64,000 nt of DNA from a virus. The notes below the pieces were generated by a model. That model was given only the letters and a program-made list of their open reading frames with translations, was not told the DNA's origin and did no database searches. Position numbers and translations under genes: made by a program. How positions within the stretch are numbered: the stretch's first letter is position 1; every line of letters begins with the position of its first letter. Shown in pieces: positions 1,598 through 14,253 of the stretch. The stretch spans positions 1 to 64,000 of the IMG/VR virus record IMGVR_UViG_3300032116_000082; one strand, 5' to 3'.

Positions 1598-3517
1598 ATG
1601 AACTCGCAGATTCTTGAACCGTTGCCATTCGGCAAACACAAAGGACGGACGCTCAGTCAGTTGATGGCTGGTTCGGTGGGTGAACGGGGCTACGTCGAGT
1701 GGATGGCTCGGGAGTTCAGCAACGAGGTGTGGCGTCGGGCAGCAGAGGACGCCGTCGCCAATGCGGCGCAGGCGATCGTTCCGGAGCGGTTCCATTACAC
1801 CATCGGTGTGGTGACGGACACCCGTGCCAGTCTGGTGTGTGCGTACGACCAACGCATTGTCACGCTGCTCCGTGACCGGGTCGACGGTATCAACTGGAAC
1901 CGCAAGGAACAACGGTGGGAGTTTCCGACCGCGCAGCTCGCGGCAGTCAAAGCACTGCTGAGCAGCGTCGGCACGGTCGAGATGTCGGAGGCCGCCGAGC
2001 AAGCGATGACCTACCATATCGACCGACGCGCCCGACTGGACTCTATTCGGGTCACGCACGATACCGATATGGAGATTCCGACGGTGTTGCCGCTGTTTGG
2101 CTTTCAGCGCGTCGGCGTGGAGTTTGCCCTCGAAGCGGGTGGCCGAGCGCTGATCGCGGATGAGATGGGCCTCGGCAAGACGTCGCAGGCCATTGGAACG
2201 GCGCTCATGCTCCGTGCCAAGCACGGAGCCCGGCGAATCCTGACCGTATGCCCAGCCAGTCTCAAGATCAACTGGTACCGGGAGTGGATCCGATTCGGCG
2301 GATTGGAACCGACGATCTGGCATGGCCAGAAGCGTATTGGAGACCTGGAGGCAGATGTCCACATCATCAATTACGACATCTTCGCCAAGTTCAGGACAGA
2401 GCTCGAGCAGCTCAACTTCGATCTGATCCTAATCGATGAGGCGCACTATCTCAAAAACAAGGACGCCTTACGGAGTATCGCCGTCTTTGGTGGATACAAC
2501 AAACGGGAGCGAGTGCGGGTCAAGCCGTTCGCGACGCGATTTGCGGTACTGTTGACCGGCACGCCGGTGCTCAATCGACCGGGCGAACTGTTTCCGTTGC
2601 TGCATTACTTGGCGCCAGAGCGGTTCGCCGACTGGTTTACGTACGCCAATCGGTATGGCGCCTGGGCTCCGATGAACATGGAGGGGCGACCGTCCAAGCC
2701 CCAAAACCTGGACGAGCTCCACGAACGGACCAAGGACATCGTCATTCGGCGAAAAAAGGTCGACGTGCTGAAGGACCTGCCGCCCAAGCTGGTCAGTGAT
2801 GTGTTTGTCGAATTGTCCACCGAGCAGCGCAAGACGTACCGGAAGACGTTGATCACGGTGGCCGAGGAGTGGAAGGCCGCCGCCAAGGACAAGCAAAAGC
2901 CGACGCTCAACGAACTGCAGATTTTGACCACGTTCCTCAACGAAGTGAAGCTCGATAAAGTACGGGAGCTGGTCGGTGAGCTTCAAAACGAAGACGACGT
3001 ACGGTCGGTGCTCGTGTTTTGTACACGCCTCGGTCCGCTGAAGCAGTTGCGTGAGCAGTATAAGCAGCAGGCCATCTACATCGATGGCAGCATGACCCCA
3101 GAGCAGCGCCAGGCGGAAGTTGACCGCTTTCAGCGCGGTGACGCAACCATCGCCCTGCTCTCTTTGCGAGCAGCAGGCGTGGGTCTGACGCTGACCAAAG
3201 CCGACACCGTGATCTTCATTGACCAGGACTTTGTCCCGGCCAACCACCAGCAGGCGGAAGACCGCGCACACCGCATCGGACAAGTCAATCCGGTGCAGAT
3301 CTACTACCTGTTGGCTGAAGATACTATCGATGAAGACCTACGAGCCTTGCTTGCCGAGAAAGTCGCCATCACCAGCCAGATCGCGGACGGGGAGGTCCGC
3401 CAGCTCGAGCGCCAACGGTCGGTGTTTACGGATTTCGTGCGGCGACTCAAGGCGCGGTACAAGCAGTTCGCCTCTCTCGCCGATCCTGACGACGTCCAGT
3501 ACACGGAGGCTGCATGA
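1598..3517 (+). CDS. SNF2-family (SMARCAL1/HARP-like) helicase with an N-terminal PFGKHKG domain
   Basis: ADEMGLGKT, DEAH, LTGTP, AAGVGLTL, QAEDRAHRIGQ; start placed at ATG 1598, after the hairpin. Confidence 0.9.
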   Translation: MNSQILEPLPFGKHKGRTLSQLMAGSVGERGYVEWMAREFSNEVWRRAAEDAVANAAQAIVPERFHYTIGVVTDTRASLVCAYDQRIVTLLRDRVDGINWNRKEQRWEFPTAQLAAVKALLSSVGTVEMSEAAEQAMTYHIDRRARLDSIRVTHDTDMEIPTVLPLFGFQRVGVEFALEAGGRALIADEMGLGKTSQAIGTALMLRAKHGARRILTVCPASLKINWYREWIRFGGLEPTIWHGQKRIGDLEADVHIINYDIFAKFRTELEQLNFDLILIDEAHYLKNKDALRSIAVFGGYNKRERVRVKPFATRFAVLLTGTPVLNRPGELFPLLHYLAPERFADWFTYANRYGAWAPMNMEGRPSKPQNLDELHERTKDIVIRRKKVDVLKDLPPKLVSDVFVELSTEQRKTYRKTLITVAEEWKAAAKDKQKPTLNELQILTTFLNEVKLDKVRELVGELQNEDDVRSVLVFCTRLGPLKQLREQYKQQAIYIDGSMTPEQRQAEVDRFQRGDATIALLSLRAAGVGLTLTKADTVIFIDQDFVPANHQQAEDRAHRIGQVNPVQIYYLLAEDTIDEDLRALLAEKVAITSQIADGEVRQLERQRSVFTDFVRRLKARYKQFASLADPDDVQYTEAA

Positions 3518-4026
3518 AGGAATTTCTGGTGATTGCTGCGGTTGCCCTGACGACAACGTTCCTTCCGACGCAAGCGCGGACGGAGCCAATCGCCGAGTAT
3601 TTGATGCGACGCGGCGCCACGGAGCGGCGCGCGCACCAAGTCGCCAAACATATCCACGCCGAGGCCGCGCGGCATCGGATTGATCCCGCCCTGGTGGCGG
3701 CGATCGTCACCGTAGAAAACCCCCTGCTTCGACCCACGGCCCGTTCCCGCGCCGGAGCGCTGGGACTGATGCAGGTCATTCCAAAGTACACTAAGCCGTA
3801 TCAGCGGCGGTGTGGTCGTGCGCTGACAGACGATCGCACGAATCTGTGCATCGGGATCCAGATCTATCAGAAGAACCTGGAAGTCCGAAAGACCGTGGTC
3901 GGTGCCCTACTTGGCTACAACGGGTGCCGGTCACGCACGGCCAAATGTGGCCGATACGCCACGATTGTACTGCGCCACCGCGCAGCGGTGGCCCAACTCA
4001 TCACCGATACCGCAGGGACAGGATGA
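3514..4026 (+). CDS. Lytic transglycosylase (SLT domain) with signal peptide
   Basis: IDPALVAAIVTVEN (catalytic Glu), GALGLMQV, ALLGYNG; N-terminal signal sequence; four Cys. Confidence 0.85.
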   Translation: MKEFLVIAAVALTTTFLPTQARTEPIAEYLMRRGATERRAHQVAKHIHAEAARHRIDPALVAAIVTVENPLLRPTARSRAGALGLMQVIPKYTKPYQRRCGRALTDDRTNLCIGIQIYQKNLEVRKTVVGALLGYNGCRSRTAKCGRYATIVLRHRAAVAQLITDTAGTG

Positions 4027-6765: not shown

Positions 6766-6972
6766 ATGCCTCAATACGCCATCGTCTGGCACACCGACCA
6801 CTACACCGACCCGAGCGTGTTTATTACGACGACCGATTCGGTAGCGAAGGCCGAGAAGAAGCTGAAGGCCAGTTATAAAAAGGAACTCGGTATTCGAGGA
6901 CGCGACGAGCTGTACATCGACGCGGTGATCGAAGGAAAGGAAATGGTGACCTGCTTCGCCAGCGGGGGATAA
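6766..6972 (+). CDS. Hypothetical protein
   Basis: ATG after the hairpin; 68 aa. Confidence 0.65.
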   Translation: MPQYAIVWHTDHYTDPSVFITTTDSVAKAEKKLKASYKKELGIRGRDELYIDAVIEGKEMVTCFASGG

Positions 6973-6973
6973 T

Positions 6974-7693
6974 ATGCTCGGTACACTGTATCCCAAGTCG
7001 GTTATCGTTGCACCCGAAAGCCCGCTCTCCAGCGGGCTTCGTGTTATCAAGGAGGCCAGCAGCAACAAGAAGCTCGGCAAGCTTGGCAAGCGGATCCAGA
7101 AGGGGCGCTTCAAGGACATGCCGATGTATGCGGTGACCTTGGAGGAGCGGGCGACCTGCTCCCCCACCTGCCCGAACCTGGACATCTGCTACGGCGACAA
7201 TATGCCGTTTGCCACCCGCCATACACCGGGTCCGGAGTTGGAGGATGCCCTGCGGGCCGATGTCCAGCACTTGTCTAAAAAACACCCGAAGGGCTTCGTG
7301 GTTCGGCTCCACGTCCTGGGTGATTTCTATTCCGTGGAATACGTCCAGTTCTGGTTCCGGCTGCTGTTGACGTACGAGCCGCTGCGACTGTTTGGCTACA
7401 CCCACTGGCAGTACGACCACCCGATCGGTAAGGCCGTGACCAAACTGGTCAAGCACTTTGGCGACCGCGTCGCGTTCCGACGCTCAGACAAGACCATCGC
7501 GGACGACCCGCTCCCGAGCGCCATGACGATCGGTCAGAACGAGCCGCCCGTCCCTGGCACGGTGATTTGCCCAGAGCAGACCGGTCGAACAGCGGCCTGT
7601 ACCACCTGCGGGTTGTGTTTGGATACGATGGTGTCCGTCAGCTTTATCGACCACTCCCGAAGGGGCTTGCGGACACTACCGTTAGCTGCCTAA
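6974..7693 (+). CDS. gp88-like (radical-SAM-related) Fe-S protein
   Basis: SNKKLGK, TCSPTCPNLDICYG, VRLHVLGDF, C-terminal CPEQ...CTTCGLC. Confidence 0.7.
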   Translation: MLGTLYPKSVIVAPESPLSSGLRVIKEASSNKKLGKLGKRIQKGRFKDMPMYAVTLEERATCSPTCPNLDICYGDNMPFATRHTPGPELEDALRADVQHLSKKHPKGFVVRLHVLGDFYSVEYVQFWFRLLLTYEPLRLFGYTHWQYDHPIGKAVTKLVKHFGDRVAFRRSDKTIADDPLPSAMTIGQNEPPVPGTVICPEQTGRTAACTTCGLCLDTMVSVSFIDHSRRGLRTLPLAA

Positions 7694-7724
7694 CTTTCAC
7701 CATCTGTCCATTTCACGGAGCTAT

Positions 7725-8105
7725 ATGCCCAAAGATCAGCCTGATCGTCGTCACATCCGTTTGGTTTCCAACGAAGAGCTCCGCGAGCTGATTCAGTCGC
7801 GAACGAGCAACGGGTTTGTCAACATGCTCCATCCCCTAGAGCTGGACATCCCGCGCGAGGTGTTGGACCAGTGGACCAGAACGTCGCTTCAGGCGCTACG
7901 GGATGAGTTGCCACGCGCTGCGGACTCCGCCCGTGCGGAGATCGAGCGCGGCATTCAGCAGCGCGTGGACTTCCTGGCGTGGCTGCAAACCCAGGAGCAG
8001 GACCAGGTGTTCATGGCAATCTACCCGGCCGACCTGGACGGGCTGGACGACCTGGACGACCTGGACGAAGTCATCGAGAATCTACCACCCGATCTGCCGT
8101 TCTAA
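7725..8105 (+). CDS. Hypothetical protein with acidic tail ending in DLPF
   Basis: GGAG SD; C-terminus DLDGLDDLDDLDEVIENLPPDLPF. Confidence 0.7.
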   Translation: MPKDQPDRRHIRLVSNEELRELIQSRTSNGFVNMLHPLELDIPREVLDQWTRTSLQALRDELPRAADSARAEIERGIQQRVDFLAWLQTQEQDQVFMAIYPADLDGLDDLDDLDEVIENLPPDLPF

Positions 8106-8121
8106 ACCGCCGGAGACAGCG

Positions 8122-9093
8122 ATGGTGTGCCAAGAGGCACTTTCTGCCTGGGAGCGGCTGCTCCTGGAGCGTGGGAGCACCAGTACTCGCACGCGGGAGA
8201 ACTATCGTCAGCAACTTAAACGGATCAGCACCCAGGTCGACCTCACGGCCCCACCAGAACAGGTCGCTCACGCCCTGCACACCTATCGTCAGCAGCTGCA
8301 GCAGCGATTTGAGTCTGGCAAGATCAGCCGGAGCTACATTCGCCTCCAAGTGGCGGCCTTGCGGTCCTTCTATGGCACCTTGGTCTCCGCCAAGCTCTAC
8401 CCGTCCGATCCGACGACCGGGCTTCGCTCGATCGCAAGTGACGAAGGGGCGCCGCGGAACCTGGCGTCCCAAGATGTGGATCGTCTGTTTGCCGCCTTGG
8501 ACATCACGGCACCGAACGGGCTGCGGGACCTGTGCATGGTGTGGCTCTACTACCATTCCCTGCGCAACAGCGAGGTTGCCAATCTCAGCACTGACGAGGT
8601 GACCTATTCAGCACGGGAAGAGGCGGTCGTGCTGACCTTTAAGGCCAAAGGTGGCAAGGTCCGCACGGTCGTGCTGGTCCCGGAGGCAGGACGCCTGCTG
8701 GCGCAGCACCTGTTACAGCAGTACGCCCCGGCCGACTGGTCGTACGCCGACCCGGATCAGCTGTTTCCGTCGTTCGATTTGCTGCTGAGTCGCGTGCTCA
8801 AGGGCAAGGTGTTGCCCGTGTTTCTTCACAACGGTCGGCAGATGACCCGACGCGTGTCGAACCAGCTGTTTGCCAAGTATCGGGAGAAGGCCGGACTTGG
8901 TCATGTGGTGCCGCACATGCTGCGACATACCTGCGCGACGAACCTGCTCAACGCCGACGTCGACCTGCGCACCGTGCAAGAGATCTTGGGTCACGCCTCT
9001 ATTCGGCAGACCGAGCGGTACACCGCGGTCTTGACGAGCCGCAAACAGCAAGCGATGAATCGACTCCCTCGTCCGGCGGTGGTTCATGGTTGA
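8122..9093 (+). CDS. XerC/D-like tyrosine recombinase
   Basis: Core-binding ALRSFY; catalytic R (LRNSE), K (AKGGK), HxxR (PHMLRH), H (LGHAS), Y (TERY); GGAG SD. Confidence 0.93.
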   Translation: MVCQEALSAWERLLLERGSTSTRTRENYRQQLKRISTQVDLTAPPEQVAHALHTYRQQLQQRFESGKISRSYIRLQVAALRSFYGTLVSAKLYPSDPTTGLRSIASDEGAPRNLASQDVDRLFAALDITAPNGLRDLCMVWLYYHSLRNSEVANLSTDEVTYSAREEAVVLTFKAKGGKVRTVVLVPEAGRLLAQHLLQQYAPADWSYADPDQLFPSFDLLLSRVLKGKVLPVFLHNGRQMTRRVSNQLFAKYREKAGLGHVVPHMLRHTCATNLLNADVDLRTVQEILGHASIRQTERYTAVLTSRKQQAMNRLPRPAVVHG

Positions 9094-10333
9094 TCCCGGT
9101 CTTATCGCCTTTGGCGGTCTGGTCATGTTTTGGGTGACCAGTCTGATGCGTCCGCATAGTCAACGCGGTCCGTGGCGGCAGAAGTTCTCGACGGAGAGTA
9201 CTGCCTACAACTACAGCTTACAGTTTCGTCCAGAGATGCGGCTGACGGCAGCGGCTATCGAGGAGCTGGCGGAGCTGGATCGCCAGGTCGAGGCGCTGCT
9301 CAACGCGCCCACGGCGCTGGCAACCGCCGAGGATATCGGCGTGGTGGCCTTCAAGCCGGACGAGCCGACGTCGTTGGCCGACTTCGACGGGCAGCGGCAT
9401 ATCGTGCGTCCGGTGCAGCTGGCCATACAGGCACTCGAGCCGTCAAAGCGGGTGCTCAACCACAAGCTGTTGACCGGGATGCCAGGTCTCGGCAAGACCC
9501 TGCTGGCCAAGGTCATCGCCAACGATCTGCGTGTGCGTTCAGAGTCCCTGGGCCTGTCTGCCTTGCCGTTCATCGAGACCTACGCGGCGAACCTGAACTC
9601 GATCGCCGCGCTCGATGAGCAGGCCAAGCGCCTGGTCGATCGGGGCGGGATTTGGTTCATTGACGAGATTCACGTCCTCAACAAGGAGCTCGCCACTAAG
9701 CTGTACCTGCTGATGGAAGACGGTCGCTATCCGTTCGACGGCAGTAGCACGCCGACCGAGATGCCGAACGTCATGATTATCGGTGCCACCACCGACTACG
9801 GCGCGCTGCACAGCGCCCTTAAGCGCCGCTTTGGCGAGCCGTTGATGGTGCGTGCCCTGACCCGCGACGAGCTGCGGGCCATGGCAGAAAAGCTCGGCCG
9901 AATCACGGCGGAAGCAACCGACTTTCTGGTCAGCCGGTGCTGGCAGTCTGGTGCGCCATTCGAGCTCAAGATCCTGTTCCGCGAATGTCGAATCTTTGCT
10001 ACGGCTCAAGGCAAGGACGAGATCACTCGCGAGGTGGTGCAGGACGTGTTCGACACGTACGAGATCGACCAACACGGGCTTCGCCCTGCGGACCGCGGCG
10101 TGATCGCGGCGCTCTTCCAGCGCCCGCGGTACCGTGGCAAGGACCAGGCGTTCTACTGCTACGGCGGCTCTGAGTCCGACGTGTGTGCCGTCGCCAAGCT
10201 GGACAAGGCCGAGTTTCAGGAAACCATTCGGCCCAAGCTGATGAGTCGCGGGTTTCTGGAGGTTCGATCCGGAGTCGGCTTGGCGCTAACGGACAAAGCG
10301 GTCAACGAATACGAGGCGCTCAAAGTATGCTGA
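9086..10333 (+). CDS. ruvB: RuvB-like AAA+ ATPase with predicted N-terminal membrane anchor
   Basis: GMPGLGKT, FIDEIH, LYLLMED, IGATT, LKRRFG, IDQHGL, C-terminal winged-helix-like IRPKLMSRGFL; hydrophobic residues 5-21. Confidence 0.85.
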   Translation: MVDPGLIAFGGLVMFWVTSLMRPHSQRGPWRQKFSTESTAYNYSLQFRPEMRLTAAAIEELAELDRQVEALLNAPTALATAEDIGVVAFKPDEPTSLADFDGQRHIVRPVQLAIQALEPSKRVLNHKLLTGMPGLGKTLLAKVIANDLRVRSESLGLSALPFIETYAANLNSIAALDEQAKRLVDRGGIWFIDEIHVLNKELATKLYLLMEDGRYPFDGSSTPTEMPNVMIIGATTDYGALHSALKRRFGEPLMVRALTRDELRAMAEKLGRITAEATDFLVSRCWQSGAPFELKILFRECRIFATAQGKDEITREVVQDVFDTYEIDQHGLRPADRGVIAALFQRPRYRGKDQAFYCYGGSESDVCAVAKLDKAEFQETIRPKLMSRGFLEVRSGVGLALTDKAVNEYEALKVC

Positions 10334-11169
10334 TGGTGGCGTACCGCGCGGAGGCACGGGTGATCGCAAACCTGCAAAAGGCCATTGTGGCGACGGAGGC
10401 GACACACGAAGTGGCGGTATTGCTGCGTCAACCGCGGGACCTGCTCGGCCTCCGTCACGATGCCGAGCTGGCCACCGTGGTCGTCCTTGATCTCCGTACG
10501 CTCGACATCCATACCGCGGTCACGGTATCAACGGACACGCTCCATACCAATGCGTTCGCCAAAGTCGTTGTCGTTGCGGCGTTGCAGCCTAAGCTGCAGG
10601 AGCAGTGCCGCCTGTACGAACTAGGCCGGGCCGGAGTCGCCTCGTTGCCGTCTCCGGACCAGGCCGAGCAGGCGTGGTGGTGGACGCAGTTCATTGAAAG
10701 TCACATCACGTTTGATATCGTGGCCGCGGCTCACCAAGACTTGGCTGCTCTGATGCCGTCTGGTGAGCGTGGCGAATTCCTGCTGCGTGTCGCCCAGCTG
10801 GCTCACCTGCCTAGTATAAAGAGCCTCTCCGACCGTCTCTACCCTGGAGACAGTTACAGCATGTCGTACAAACGACGCCGGTTGTGGGAGGAGTGCCGCC
10901 GGTTGCACTTGGGCACCCCGGAAGCAGTGCTGGCCGCAACCCGCCTGATGTTGATCAAGTTCATTCTGGATGCGGATCAGTGGACGCTCAACCGGGTGGC
11001 TCGGTACTTTGGTGTCGATACGTCCCGGAATTTCAACCGTAGCTGCAAGACGAGGTATAGTCTGTCGGTCAAAGACATTCGACGAATGCCTCGAGACTCC
11101 ATAGTTGCCAAGGCCACGGAGATGTTCGTGTCGAACGCTCCATGGTCGGTCCTGCTGCAAGAACCATAG
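10327..11169 (+). CDS. AraC-type HTH regulator with degenerate receiver-like N-domain
   Basis: C-terminal TPEAVLAATRL...WTLNRVARYFGVDTSRNFNRSCKTRYSLS; VVVLDL in the N-domain; ATGCTGA overlap with ruvB-like gene. Confidence 0.7.
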   Translation: MLMVAYRAEARVIANLQKAIVATEATHEVAVLLRQPRDLLGLRHDAELATVVVLDLRTLDIHTAVTVSTDTLHTNAFAKVVVVAALQPKLQEQCRLYELGRAGVASLPSPDQAEQAWWWTQFIESHITFDIVAAAHQDLAALMPSGERGEFLLRVAQLAHLPSIKSLSDRLYPGDSYSMSYKRRRLWEECRRLHLGTPEAVLAATRLMLIKFILDADQWTLNRVARYFGVDTSRNFNRSCKTRYSLSVKDIRRMPRDSIVAKATEMFVSNAPWSVLLQEP

Positions 11170-11197
11170 GCGCCGTCGAAAGACGGCGCTTTCGTTT
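11170..11197 (+). terminator. Intrinsic terminator (GAAA tetraloop)
   Basis: GCGCCGTC-GAAA-GACGGCGC-TTTCGTTT directly after the stop. Confidence 0.85.
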
Positions 11198-11330
11198 ATG
11201 GGGATTCCGTGCCCCTTGTTTTGCGCGGCGGGAGCCGGGAGTGTGAGGCTAAAGAAAACCCACCAAAACGGCAGATTAAGACACCATAACGTAAGGATGC
11301 GGCCGATAGTGTTTCGTTAGGAAACGGGTC

Positions 11331-11346
11331 AGTGATTCGTATCACA
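11331..11346. promoter_or_regulatory. CRP/FNR-family-like operator
   Basis: AGTGA-ttcgta-TCACA, 9/10 match to TGTGA-N6-TCACA, in a large (~270 nt) intergenic gap. Confidence 0.4.
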
Positions 11347-11390
11347 AAGCTGTCCTTCCAGGTAACGAACTCGGCCTTTTACAGTACCGA

Positions 11391-11441
11391 CCTCAGCTGG
11401 ATCTTATGCGCAACCACAAACTGCTGAGGGGTTGCGCATGA
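11391..11441 (+). promoter_or_regulatory. Structured leader occluding SD and AUG of the sigma-like gene
   Basis: 11404-15 pairs with 11430-41 (12 bp, includes AUG); 11391-97 pairs with 11423-29 (7 bp, includes GAGG). Confidence 0.55.
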
Positions 11442-12172
11442 ACGGTACAGAACAGTCGCTAGCGGATAGGTGCCGGTCTGTAGGTGAAGTGGTTTGTCAC
11501 CTGGGCGGCTTCGTACGCCGCCAGCTCAACAAGAAGCTCGAAGAGCCGATCTCAGATACCGATTGGCAACAGCATGGTCGAGTCGCGGTCTTCTTGGCCT
11601 TTCTGAACCTAGACGGCAATCCGGATCGACCAGACGGATTCGATTGGTATGCCAAGTCCTTCGTGGCCAAGGCCCTTTCCATTCTGCAGCAAATCACCAT
11701 TGGCAGCGAAAGCGACGTCTACGATCGAATCGTTCGGTGTCGCCAACGGCGATCGGCCAGGAACGTAGATGAGCTGCGCTGGGATTGTTGGGCCTCCGCC
11801 TCGCTCGATGACATTGCGGGCCATCGCGCGGTTGAGGATTTCAGTCTTGACCTAATGGCCCCTACATCGTTGGAGCAGATGTATGAGTTTGAACGGGCGG
11901 CGGCACGTCCGCAGGTCGATGACGCACTGGTCCAGGAGCTCACAAAGAACCTCAAGCCGCAAGAGGCGGTGTGGTTGATCCGTCGCTATCGCGACGGCGT
12001 GCCGACGGCGATTCTGGCGGAAGAACTCTGCCGCAAGAACGTCAAGTATCAGACACCGGATGGACAGGTCCGCGCTATCCGGTGCATTGATGTCGCGGTT
12101 CATCGTGCGCGAGCCAAGGCGCGCAAGTTTCTCAACAGCCGTTGGCAACAGTTGGCCGCAGAAGTGTCGTGA
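11438..12172 (+). CDS. Sigma-70-like (ECF/group 3-4 size) phage sigma factor
   Basis: Region-4-like LKPQEAVWLIRRYRDGVPTAILAEEL...VAVHRARAKARKFL; region-2-like GRVAVFLAFLNLD...FDWYAKSFV; ASLDD linker. Confidence 0.65.
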   Translation: MNGTEQSLADRCRSVGEVVCHLGGFVRRQLNKKLEEPISDTDWQQHGRVAVFLAFLNLDGNPDRPDGFDWYAKSFVAKALSILQQITIGSESDVYDRIVRCRQRRSARNVDELRWDCWASASLDDIAGHRAVEDFSLDLMAPTSLEQMYEFERAAARPQVDDALVQELTKNLKPQEAVWLIRRYRDGVPTAILAEELCRKNVKYQTPDGQVRAIRCIDVAVHRARAKARKFLNSRWQQLAAEVS

Positions 12173-12390
12173 ATATCCAGTTGAGACTCAAGGCACTTGC
12201 CTCAGCCCCCATGCCAAACCTCGTAGAAGTTGTAGAACTCGATCCGGCGTACAAATTCAGCCCCCTGGTAGATATCATCGACGCGGCGATTGCCAAACGG
12301 CGGTTACTCAAACTTCGCACTCTTGAGGGCGACGCCCTCGTCATTCGTACGGACGTCCTTCATAGCCTCGCCATCCGAGAAACCCACTAA
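12169..12390 (+). CDS. Hypothetical protein
   Basis: GTGA and TAATG overlaps at both ends. Confidence 0.6.
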   Translation: MNIQLRLKALASAPMPNLVEVVELDPAYKFSPLVDIIDAAIAKRRLLKLRTLEGDALVIRTDVLHSLAIRETH

Positions 12391-13391
12391 TGCCCATCAT
12401 CGGTTACGTATGCCCACCTGGCGGAGAAGCCCCTGGTCGGCAGAACCACGTCGAGTATTGCCTGAAGGACTGTCAACAGCAGTGTGTGACCCCGCCGCTT
12501 CTTGCGGCCATGTGGAAGGCAGACACCGGCAACTATCACCAAGGCGACTACATTTCCGCGTCCATGCTGGCCGGGTCGGGCTGCGGTCGCCAGGTGATGT
12601 TGGAGCGGTATCAGGACTTCTACGACCTGCCGACCAAGCGGTATTGGCCGTTCCGCGGTACGCACGCCCACGCGATTATCGAAGGCGCGGGGGATATCAT
12701 TGCCAAGTATGGATGGCTGCAGGAAATCCGTATGGCGACGAAGCTCGAGTACGAGCTCCCGCAGCCGGTCTTCGATGAGCACGGGAACTGGACGGGCGAC
12801 TACGATTCGTCCAAAAACCTGGAAATCGTCGTGCGTGGGACCACCGATGCGTACAATCCGTACTCGCGGACCTTGACGGACATGAAGAGCATGGCCGACA
12901 AGAAGGTCGAGATGATGATCAAGGGGTCAACGCCGGGGACGTACTCAAAGCATTTGCAGGATTCGTGGGTCGCCCAGCTGAACATCTACCGCTACTTGAT
13001 CTCGAAGACGGAGATTCCGGATTGGGTTCACACCGCCTTCAAGGAGCATGGGCTTCCGAAGCTCAAGGGAAAGCTGTTCCCTGCCCCGACTAAGCTCTTT
13101 ATCCAGGGCATCGCCATGATGAGCCATCCGGTATCCGGCTCAAAGTTGGCACACAAGGAACGCGGCAAGGTCACGCTGTACGACATCGACCACGTGCCGG
13201 TGTGGTCGATCGAAGAAACCGAAGACTTTATTCGTCCGCGTGCCCTGGAGTGGTATCGGGCGCTCAACCTCAAGATCACCCCGCCGGTTGTGTCGAAAGA
13301 CAAAGAATGGCTGTGTCGGAATTGTGCCTTCCACGAAAAGGTGTGTTTTCCGGCACAAGAACGCGACTCGCAGGAGCAGTCGAGTGACTGA
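12390..13391 (+). CDS. Cas4/AddB-like PD-(D/E)XK nuclease with Fe-S cysteines
   Basis: CGRQ, GTHAHA, GTTD, DMK, QLNIY, C-terminal CRNCAFHEKVC. Confidence 0.8.
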   Translation: MPIIGYVCPPGGEAPGRQNHVEYCLKDCQQQCVTPPLLAAMWKADTGNYHQGDYISASMLAGSGCGRQVMLERYQDFYDLPTKRYWPFRGTHAHAIIEGAGDIIAKYGWLQEIRMATKLEYELPQPVFDEHGNWTGDYDSSKNLEIVVRGTTDAYNPYSRTLTDMKSMADKKVEMMIKGSTPGTYSKHLQDSWVAQLNIYRYLISKTEIPDWVHTAFKEHGLPKLKGKLFPAPTKLFIQGIAMMSHPVSGSKLAHKERGKVTLYDIDHVPVWSIEETEDFIRPRALEWYRALNLKITPPVVSKDKEWLCRNCAFHEKVCFPAQERDSQEQSSD

Positions 13392-13728: not shown

Positions 13729-14253
13729 ATGGCCAAGTCACTCCGCTTCAAAGTCCACAACTGTAAGGCAGTCTCGCGCAACTCCCTGATGGTGTTTGAT
13801 CTCGCGGTTGGGTACGAGGAGAACGGGCAGTTCATTGGCGTCATGGATGTCCGTGGCTGCTGGCTCAAGCAGAAGAGCGACGGCTCGGGAAACTACGTGT
13901 CGTTCCCGTCGAAGCTGCGGGTTACTAAGGAAGGCGAGGCGGCAGTCGATGACAACGGCTACAAGATCTACGACAACATCGTCGACATGTATCTCGAGAA
14001 GGGCGCCAATCCGGAGAAGCCGGACACGCGGGCGCCGACGCAGGCGGCGTGGGGGTTTCGGAAGTGGCTGATTCAGGAGGCCACCACGGCATATCAGCAG
14101 CTCTCTTCGTCTGAGAGCGGTCGCGGCGCGGCCAAGCCTGCGTCAGCGCCCAGCCGAGCGGCGGCTAAGCCTGCGCCGAAGCCTGCGGCGGCACCGACTG
14201 CGGTGGCGGACGATTACGCGGATGACGACGACGATTCGGCGTTCCCGTTCTAA
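13729..14253 (+). CDS. SpoVG-like single-stranded DNA-binding protein
   Basis: VRGCWLKQKSDGSGNYVSFPSK resembles SpoVG; Ala/Pro linker; acidic tail DDDDDSAFPF; GAGGA SD. Confidence 0.7.
   Translation: MAKSLRFKVHNCKAVSRNSLMVFDLAVGYEENGQFIGVMDVRGCWLKQKSDGSGNYVSFPSKLRVTKEGEAAVDDNGYKIYDNIVDMYLEKGANPEKPDTRAPTQAAWGFRKWLIQEATTAYQQLSSSESGRGAAKPASAPSRAAAKPAPKPAAAPTAVADDYADDDDDSAFPF

Follow-up and report, generated by a model that had tools for sequence, protein, structure and literature searches.

A predicted membrane-tethered RuvB-family ATPase linked to a small acidic protein in a phage operon from IMG/VR

We analysed the first 64 kb (64,000 nucleotides, hereafter the window) of the 94,271-bp virus record IMGVR_UViG_3300032116_000082, classed in IMG/VR as linear and about 58 % complete, focusing on a four-gene operon at positions 7725-11197 encoding a small acidic protein, a tyrosine recombinase, a RuvB-family AAA+ ATPase and a protein with an AraC-like helix-turn-helix (HTH) region. 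The reading that we favour, with a probability of roughly one half, is that of an early operon whose core consists of the small protein and a membrane-tethered, RuvA-free motor of the RuvB family, the recombinase and AraC-like genes having been added in one sub-lineage. Linkage of the recombinase to the ATPase is restricted to that sub-lineage and linkage of the small protein to the ATPase is wider. We infer membrane insertion, ring formation, DNA translocation, RuvA independence and any physical partnership. The phage itself is a large, uncultured, long-tailed one, perhaps with a host among the Gemmatimonadota.

The ATPase, described in an initial annotation of the region as RuvB-like, proved to be a genuine member of the RuvB family. 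It matched Pfam RuvB_N with an E-value of 9.7e-23, its Pfam matches comprising AAA+ and RuvB_N families only, and a profile of 28 sequences from its clade retrieved RuvB of solved structure at 1.9e-36 with the next family (VCP-like) at 1.9e-16. The AlphaFold2 (AF2) model (predicted local distance difference test score, pLDDT, 88) contains the three domains of RuvB, a large ATPase domain, lid and winged-helix head, and Foldseek ranks 1 to approximately 40 were all RuvB with some 330 columns aligned. Positions 21-323 of the 330 in the NCBIfam RuvB profile are covered, and the scores lie below the RuvB equivalog cut-offs (TIGR00635 / NF000868) at 120.3 bits versus 282 and 112.6 bits versus 299. 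With 120 bits against a cut-off of 282 the protein is therefore not regarded as a RuvB orthologue. It falls within a separate clade of around 70 clusters (P0001-P0071) recovered at E-values of 1e-272 to 1e-40, canonical RuvB following from approximately 1e-21.

The clade is absent among 50,697 deposited GenBank phage genomes, and blastn against GenBank phages gave no match. Generic patterns derived from the clade alignment retrieved canonical RuvB loci only; clade-specific motif patterns matched in just two other IMG/VR records, and with them 4 of 29 metagenome loci and one of 20 GTDB contigs were real. As a consequence of this absence from phage genomes and rarity within IMG/VR, the clade is labelled merely 'RuvB' by current annotation.

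Residues of the AAA+ core are kept throughout the 28 aligned sequences, with G131, G134, G136, K137, D193, E194, T235, T236, R247 and R248 invariant. The trans arginine finger is retained, the double arginine at 247-248 being invariant across the clade. Other parts of the protein depart from canonical RuvB. The segment from MED to IGATT (residues 213-231) comprises 19 amino acids, as had been noted from the letters alone, versus 25 in aligned canonical RuvB; this corresponds to a clade-wide deletion of six amino acids in the presensor-1 hairpin, and the shortened hairpin carries a new and nearly invariant GRYPF(D/E)G motif. Ahead of Walker B, beside the helix that precedes the hairpin, 12 amino acids are inserted. 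The GAPF reported for the sensor-II region does align with the canonical GTPR, placing Phe292 at the position of sensor-2 Arg218, and an invariant Glu93 occupies the position of Arg21. In canonical RuvB, domain III of RuvA docks on a hydrophobic surface made up of helix alpha3 and the presensor-1 hairpin, and Arg21 and the sensor-2 Arg218 are two cis-acting arginines (PMC9477746). Read against that structure, the remodelling of hairpin and helix together with the replacement of both arginines indicates that the RuvA-binding surface and the cis-sensing pair have both changed.

An N-terminal extension of about 85 amino acids precedes the ATPase domain, which begins at around residue 86 in the AF2 model; within the extension residues 4-21 form an isolated helix, followed by a disordered stretch and a linker helix at residues 49-73. 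The initial annotation had drawn attention to a hydrophobic helix followed by basic residues, and this description held for the query and extends to much of the clade. Taking as the criterion a 19-aa window with hydropathy ≥1.6, the usual threshold, a hydrophobic segment near residue 3 was present in 52 of 71 homologue clusters versus none of 49 canonical RuvB, the query itself scoring a borderline 1.53. N-terminal sequences are unrelated across the clade and the hydrophobic feature is nonetheless kept. Counts of lysine and arginine are 0.04 ahead of the helix and 3.3 within the 15 amino acids behind it, and the basic residues behind the helix therefore predict an N-out orientation that leaves the motor in the cytoplasm. 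G+C content at third codon positions (GC3) across the extension is highest in the ATPase frame, so that a start downstream of the helix, a concern raised when the anchor was proposed, is judged unlikely. A copy of the ATPase without the anchor was seen at 2073-3671 of a 4809-bp contig (L125) from a Gemmatimonas metagenome-assembled genome, directly behind an apparent remnant of an IS21 IstB-like gene on the opposite strand; given that position, the copy is probably rearranged or truncated.

The first gene of the operon encodes a protein whose AF2 model (pLDDT 87.7) consists of a strand, two helices and a strand followed by an acidic tail, which in the query ends in DLPF. The fold had no significant match in the PDB and the ESM Atlas returned nothing informative; a DUF3323 match (E 0.0098) was treated as noise. 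A profile of the protein collected 70 representative homologues, all but one between 57 and 198 amino acids in length. Most of their tails are strongly acidic and 15 of the 70 end in [LIVMF]PF, two of these with one or two further residues.

Small protein and ATPase occur in the same order in the window and in a related IMG/VR phage (locus L002 of G001), where the small protein is 45-47 % identical. The pair also occurs in G055, a Gemmatimonadota chromosome (contig of 510,936 bp), in which a 67-aa homologue sharing the motifs QQR-x-(D/E)FLAWL and ALYP lies directly upstream of an anchored ATPase that is 43 % identical to the query. Queries for the recombinase, HTH, 246-aa, nuclease-like, SSB-like and GP88-like proteins of the phage found no match within 38 kb of this pair. 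Among 401 Gemmatimonadota genomes sampled the ATPase clade was present in two, and among 401 from the taxonomic order to which G055 belongs it was present in one. We judged whether two gene families share a contig from the identical size of the longest contig in separate protein searches, where a match indicates presence and a missing match is weaker evidence of absence. By this measure 4 of the 30 small-protein representatives looked up share a longest-contig size with ATPase clusters, including P0056 (56 % identity) and P0028 (54 %). These occurrences make the small protein a candidate partner of the ATPase. We set aside a role for it as an excisionase, as the small protein and ATPase of G055 are not accompanied by a recombinase. 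The G055 flank (L141/L142, G055:C6:262000-299999) places the small protein and anchored ATPase among MerR-VWA, Macro and PUA-like genes together with genes for WYL-PD-(D/E)xK (980 aa) and UvrD-PD-(D/E)xK (1612 aa) proteins, a neighbourhood that looks like a defence island.

The recombinase has the complete R-K-HxxR-H-Y set ascribed to it by the initial annotation, R148, K176, H265, R268, H291 and Y300 being invariant in 23 orthologues. It opens directly with the core-binding domain and thus has no arm-binding domain. Scores of 152 bits against the XerC equivalog (cut-off 335, profile positions 3-286 of 295) and 144 bits against that of XerD (cut-off 330) were obtained, and on the former the protein is not a XerC orthologue. 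Its clade comprises 32 clusters from metagenomes only, generic XerC/D coming next at E-values of approximately 1e-21; a search of 401 Gemmatimonadota genomes did not find it, although that search had no positive control and the host assignment is uncertain. We found no convincing inverted repeat resembling a dif site (two arms of ~11 bp with a 6-8 bp spacer) in 6900-11600, although such a site may sit elsewhere, and no conserved non-coding block near the operon either in that interval or in comparison with L002.

By the same contig-size measure, 16 ATPase clusters, all with 65-75 % identity to the query, are found together with the recombinase on one contig. For the 41 clusters with less than ~62 % identity no such pairing with the recombinase clade was detected, even though 19 of these clusters lie on contigs longer than 10 kb. 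In the related phage, where the ATPase is 62-74 % identical to the query, recombinase and ATPase genes are juxtaposed with a stop/start overlap of 14 nt, and the gene order (GP88-like, small protein, recombinase, ATPase, HTH, 246-aa, nuclease-like, SSB-like) matches that of the window. At L108, a locus of cluster P0028 whose ATPase is 54 % identical, a small hydrophobic open reading frame (ORF) is found directly upstream of the ATPase and there is no recombinase; the ATPase is followed by the nuclease-like gene, the HTH and 246-aa genes being absent. This short ORF (L108 20-140, +), which encodes a hydrophobic peptide, has its end precisely where the ATPase begins and takes the place that the recombinase has in the window. 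The adjacency of xer- and ruvB-like genes thus recurs, but it is absent at L108 and G055, and contig sizes gave no sign of it in the 41 distant clusters.

No match to RuvA_N or TIGR00084 was detected in the whole 94-kb record at its completeness of ~58 %, extending to the entire record an absence of ruvA first remarked for the window. The accompanying absence of ruvC holds for the window only, as a RuvC-like resolvase (phrog_159, E 7.3e-16) is encoded 3.2 kb past its end at record positions 67218-67871 on the minus strand (L136:3218-3871), with a counterpart in G001. Because the phage also has this resolvase, general recombination is an equally good context for the ATPase. Other genes of DNA metabolism in the record encode an SNF2 helicase, a class II ribonucleotide reductase, a family A DNA polymerase and, at 72878-74911 (-), a TOTE-type AEP primase (PF22548, 1.1e-33) fused to a DnaB-like helicase C-terminal domain (1.2e-35); an SLT transglycosylase is also encoded. 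PADLOC gave P-loop-level matches to IetA only and none that was meaningful for defence families. Two large proteins (636 and 532 aa) encoded at 76035-79556 (-) match the ubiquitin-E1 FCCH domain (7.7e-9 and 7.1e-4), which is unexpected in a phage.

We propose that the operon may be part of a DNA-metabolism module with the small acidic protein and the RuvB-family ATPase as its conserved core. One N-terminal helix and a linker of ~60 amino acids would hold the ATPase at the inner membrane, on its cytoplasmic side. Like RuvB, the ATPase most likely assembles into ATP-driven rings on double-stranded DNA, since Walker A and B, sensor 1 and the arginine finger are kept. It probably works without RuvA, because neither element of the surface for RuvA domain III has kept its canonical form and both cis-arginines are replaced, and the likeliest adaptor would then be the small protein. 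The probable job of such a motor is to move or hold recombination and replication intermediates of the phage at the membrane, with the phage's own RuvC-like resolvase presumably cutting the junctions. The Xer-type recombinase and AraC-like regulator appear to have joined the operon in one sub-lineage, in which the recombinase would act in site-specific recombination, either to resolve multimers or for integration, perhaps with help from the motor. The motor family itself does not depend on the recombinase.

Several observations weigh against a tethered, RuvA-free motor with the small protein as its partner. The hydrophobic segment of the query is short and, at 1.53 versus 1.6, borderline; 7 of the 71 clusters, the query among them, are borderline (1.23-1.56) and a further 12 have no hydrophobic N-terminal segment (best score ≤1.11). 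Some of these 12 are fragments or late start calls, but a few, such as P0018, look genuinely soluble. The link to the small protein comprises three loci directly seen and four size matches among 30 looked up, and several of its homologues are on long contigs without a match in the ATPase table. With the record only ~58 % complete a ruvA gene could lie in the missing part, and RuvA of the host could bind the remodelled surface. Finally, loss of the two cis-arginines could entail weak or altered hydrolysis. The replacement of Arg21 and the sensor-2 Arg218 would also suit a protein that binds ATP and DNA as a membrane tether and not as a motor, anchoring replicating phage DNA or the replisome. 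The layout of helix, linker helix (49-73) and DNA-binding domains recalls p16.7 of phi29, in which a membrane helix at the N terminus is combined with a coiled coil and a DNA-binding domain. Invariance of Walker B, sensor 1, the arginine finger and the MED signature across the clade argues however for retained hydrolysis, and we give the tether little credence. That the N-terminal helix is no anchor at all, but results from a wrongly called start or serves oligomerisation as a hydrophobic helix, in an ordinary soluble phage paralogue of RuvB, seems highly improbable. In-frame ATG codons at residues 14, 21 and 51, the sub-threshold score of the query and the lack of the helix in some homologues are in keeping with it. 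Conservation of the feature in 52 of 71 clusters despite an unconserved sequence, compared with none of the canonical proteins, a charge pattern that fits a membrane anchor, the coding signature of GC3 and an ATPase start that overlaps the upstream stop in two phages all point the other way.

The initial annotation had envisaged a self-contained system resembling FtsK and XerCD, in which a membrane motor loads on phage DNA and activates or drives Xer-type synapsis and resolution of multimers, integration or segregation. The anchor, as a conserved sequence feature, and the juxtaposition of the two genes stood up, the latter in one sub-lineage with stop/start overlaps of 8 nt in the window and 14 nt in L002 and shared contigs in 16 further clusters; an arrangement of anchor, linker and motor that parallels FtsK and a simple recombinase of Xer/Cre type without an arm-binding domain are likewise what such a machine would display. 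We nonetheless consider an obligatory machine of this kind unlikely. The recombinase was not found on the contigs of the 41 distant clusters, 19 of them on contigs longer than 10 kb, the ATPase was directly seen without it at L108 and G055, no convincing dif-like site or conserved non-coding block was detected near the genes (6900-11600), the phage has a RuvC-like resolvase, and the invariant hairpin motif is also kept in members of the clade without the recombinase. Moreover, the motor is of AAA+ type without the FtsK-HerA fold or a gamma-like domain. An analogy with FtsK/Xer is possible for the sub-lineage of the query but does not account for the organisation of the ATPase family as a whole. 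It is quite unlikely, if conceivable, that an FtsK-like machine has been assembled here from different parts, namely a tethered RuvB-derived ring, a small protein with an acidic tail like the SSB tip that replaces RuvA as loader or regulator, and an Xer-type recombinase using the motor for multimer resolution or segregation at the membrane. A role for the ATPase on DNA crossing the envelope, either early synthesis from the leading DNA of a large genome so as to pull in the remainder, or the exclusion of superinfecting DNA, strikes us as improbable. The predicted orientation of the anchor would place a putative pump for double-stranded DNA on the inner side of the membrane, the operon is found 8-11 kb into the record within a plus-strand early block that includes the SLT transglycosylase gene, and the standalone cassette of G055 sits amid nuclease, helicase, WYL and Macro-domain genes in a setting like that of a defence island. 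However, the record is a fragment without defined ends, there is no meaningful match to known defence families, nothing connects the ATPase with an entry channel, and the synteny is with replication and recombination genes.

All four genes of the operon are on the plus strand and are closed by one hairpin at the 3′ end, with a GC3 of 0.72-0.79 for each gene (Table 1). The initial annotation had described three genes in 7725-11197, which would put the recombinase start at 7725. This was incorrect, as 7725-8105 is a separate conserved gene, that of the small protein, and the recombinase starts at 8122; GGAG Shine-Dalgarno motifs precede both. The reported overlaps were recovered as given, the ATPase starting inside the recombinase gene (9086-9093, 8 nt) and the HTH gene inside that of the ATPase (10327-10333, 7 nt), as was the single terminator, albeit with a weak T tract. 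No tRNA genes were found in the window.

Table 1 Features of the operon, in positions of the 64-kb window
Feature	Positions	Strand	Basis and remarks
Small acidic protein, 126 aa	7725-8105	+	GGAG 5 nt upstream of ATG; GC3 0.76
Xer/Cre-type simple tyrosine recombinase, 323 aa	8122-9093	+	PF00589 E 1.8e-31; start at 8122 set by GGAG and ATG
RuvB-family AAA+ ATPase, 415 aa	9086-10333	+	N-terminal anchor (predicted), linker, large ATPase domain, lid, winged-helix head
Predicted N-terminal transmembrane helix, residues 4-21	9095-9148	+	Isolated helix in AF2 model; hydropathy; charge pattern
Walker A GMPGLGKT (G131-T138)	9476-9499	+	G131, G134, G136, K137 invariant
Walker B FIDEIH (F191-H196)	9656-9673	+	F191, I192, D193, E194, H196 invariant
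MED signature, shortened presensor-1 hairpin, sensor 1 (GATT)	9713-9793	+	G213, Y215, G233, T235, T236 invariant
GAPF at sensor-2 GTPR position	9950-9961	+	Alignment with canonical RuvB
280-aa protein, sub-threshold AraC-type HTH in C-terminal part	10327-11169	+	HTH_18 21 bits versus gathering cut-off 33.6
Terminator-like hairpin	11168-11191	+	10-bp stem, 7 G-C pairs, weak T tract; directly after last operon stop

The assignment of the last gene as an AraC-type regulator could be upheld in part. An AraC-like HTH signal is present in all five orthologues of the 280-aa protein, but in each HTH_18 remains below threshold, the best E-value being 3.2e-5, and there is no sequence match in the PDB. 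The gene is fast-evolving, with 24-57 % identity among orthologues (24-32 % in L002 and the further locus L096), and is absent from L105 as well as L108. Its N-terminal half (10327-10650, +) is receiver-like in appearance (MLMVAY, VVLDLR, VVVVAA), with no family match in support. Downstream, Pfam, PHROGs, NCBIfam and PADLOC gave no match to a 246-aa protein (11432-12172, +), which has counterparts of 34 % identity in L002 and L096 but none in L105 or L108. The following 333-aa protein (12390-13391, +) has no family match in four libraries; inspected by eye it contains PD-(D/E)xK and QxxxY motifs and N- and C-terminal cysteine clusters and looks like a nuclease of Cas4/RecB type. It is 62-75 % identical in L002, L096, L105 and L108, being better conserved than the ATPase in L096 and L108 and about equally so in L002 and L105. 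A 174-aa protein (13729-14253, +), 74 % identical in L002 and without a match in Pfam, PHROGs or NCBIfam, contains an Ala/Pro-rich region; its acidic tail closes with DDDDSAFPF and resembles the tip of SSB, which makes it the second acidic-tailed protein of the module to end in PF.

RuvB is the textbook example of a soluble motor dependent on RuvA. A membrane-anchored and remodelled variant of it seems to be undescribed, and a limited literature search found no description of a membrane-anchored RuvB. The clade retains the catalytic core yet gains a predicted anchor, remodels the RuvA surface, loses both cis-arginines and travels with a small acidic protein. If our reading is correct, it would represent a new way of deploying a branch-migration motor and a testable case of RuvA-independent loading, with a bearing on the cellular site of recombination-dependent replication in large phages.

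Among known systems, FtsK/SpoIIIE with XerCD resembles the phage operon in layout only: a membrane anchor (predicted in the phage), a linker and a motor that forms rings (putatively so in the phage), encoded beside a simple Xer-type recombinase. FtsK has at least four membrane helices, the FtsK-HerA fold and a gamma domain, whereas the phage motor is an AAA+ protein of RuvB type with one predicted membrane helix, and its linkage to the recombinase is found in one sub-lineage only. The recombinase shares with XerC, XerD and XerA the core-binding and catalytic domains, the full catalytic set and a near-full XerC profile, but forms its own metagenome-only clade of 32 clusters. RuvC-like resolvases of phages (phrog_159) are represented by one each in the query phage and G001, the query thus combining a RuvC-like resolvase and a RuvB-like ATPase in one genome at a distance of ~57 kb. 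The long acidic tail of the small protein, often ending in (D)(L/I)PF, is reminiscent of the C-terminal tip of SSB, which in E. coli is DDDIPF; its core of strand, two helices and strand is however not the OB fold of SSB. The closest relative of the motor remains RuvB (TIGR00635, NF000868; 1IN4, 1IXS, 7PBL, 8EFV), with the same three-domain fold, ~30 % identity over ATPase residues 94-412 and shared Walker A and B, sensor 1, arginine finger and MED signature. To this plan the phage ATPase adds an N-terminal predicted membrane helix and a linker of ~60 amino acids, and its clade differs from RuvB in having Glu for Arg21, Phe, Trp or Tyr for the sensor-2 Arg, a hairpin six amino acids shorter with GRYPF(D/E)G, and a 12-aa insertion beside the preceding helix.

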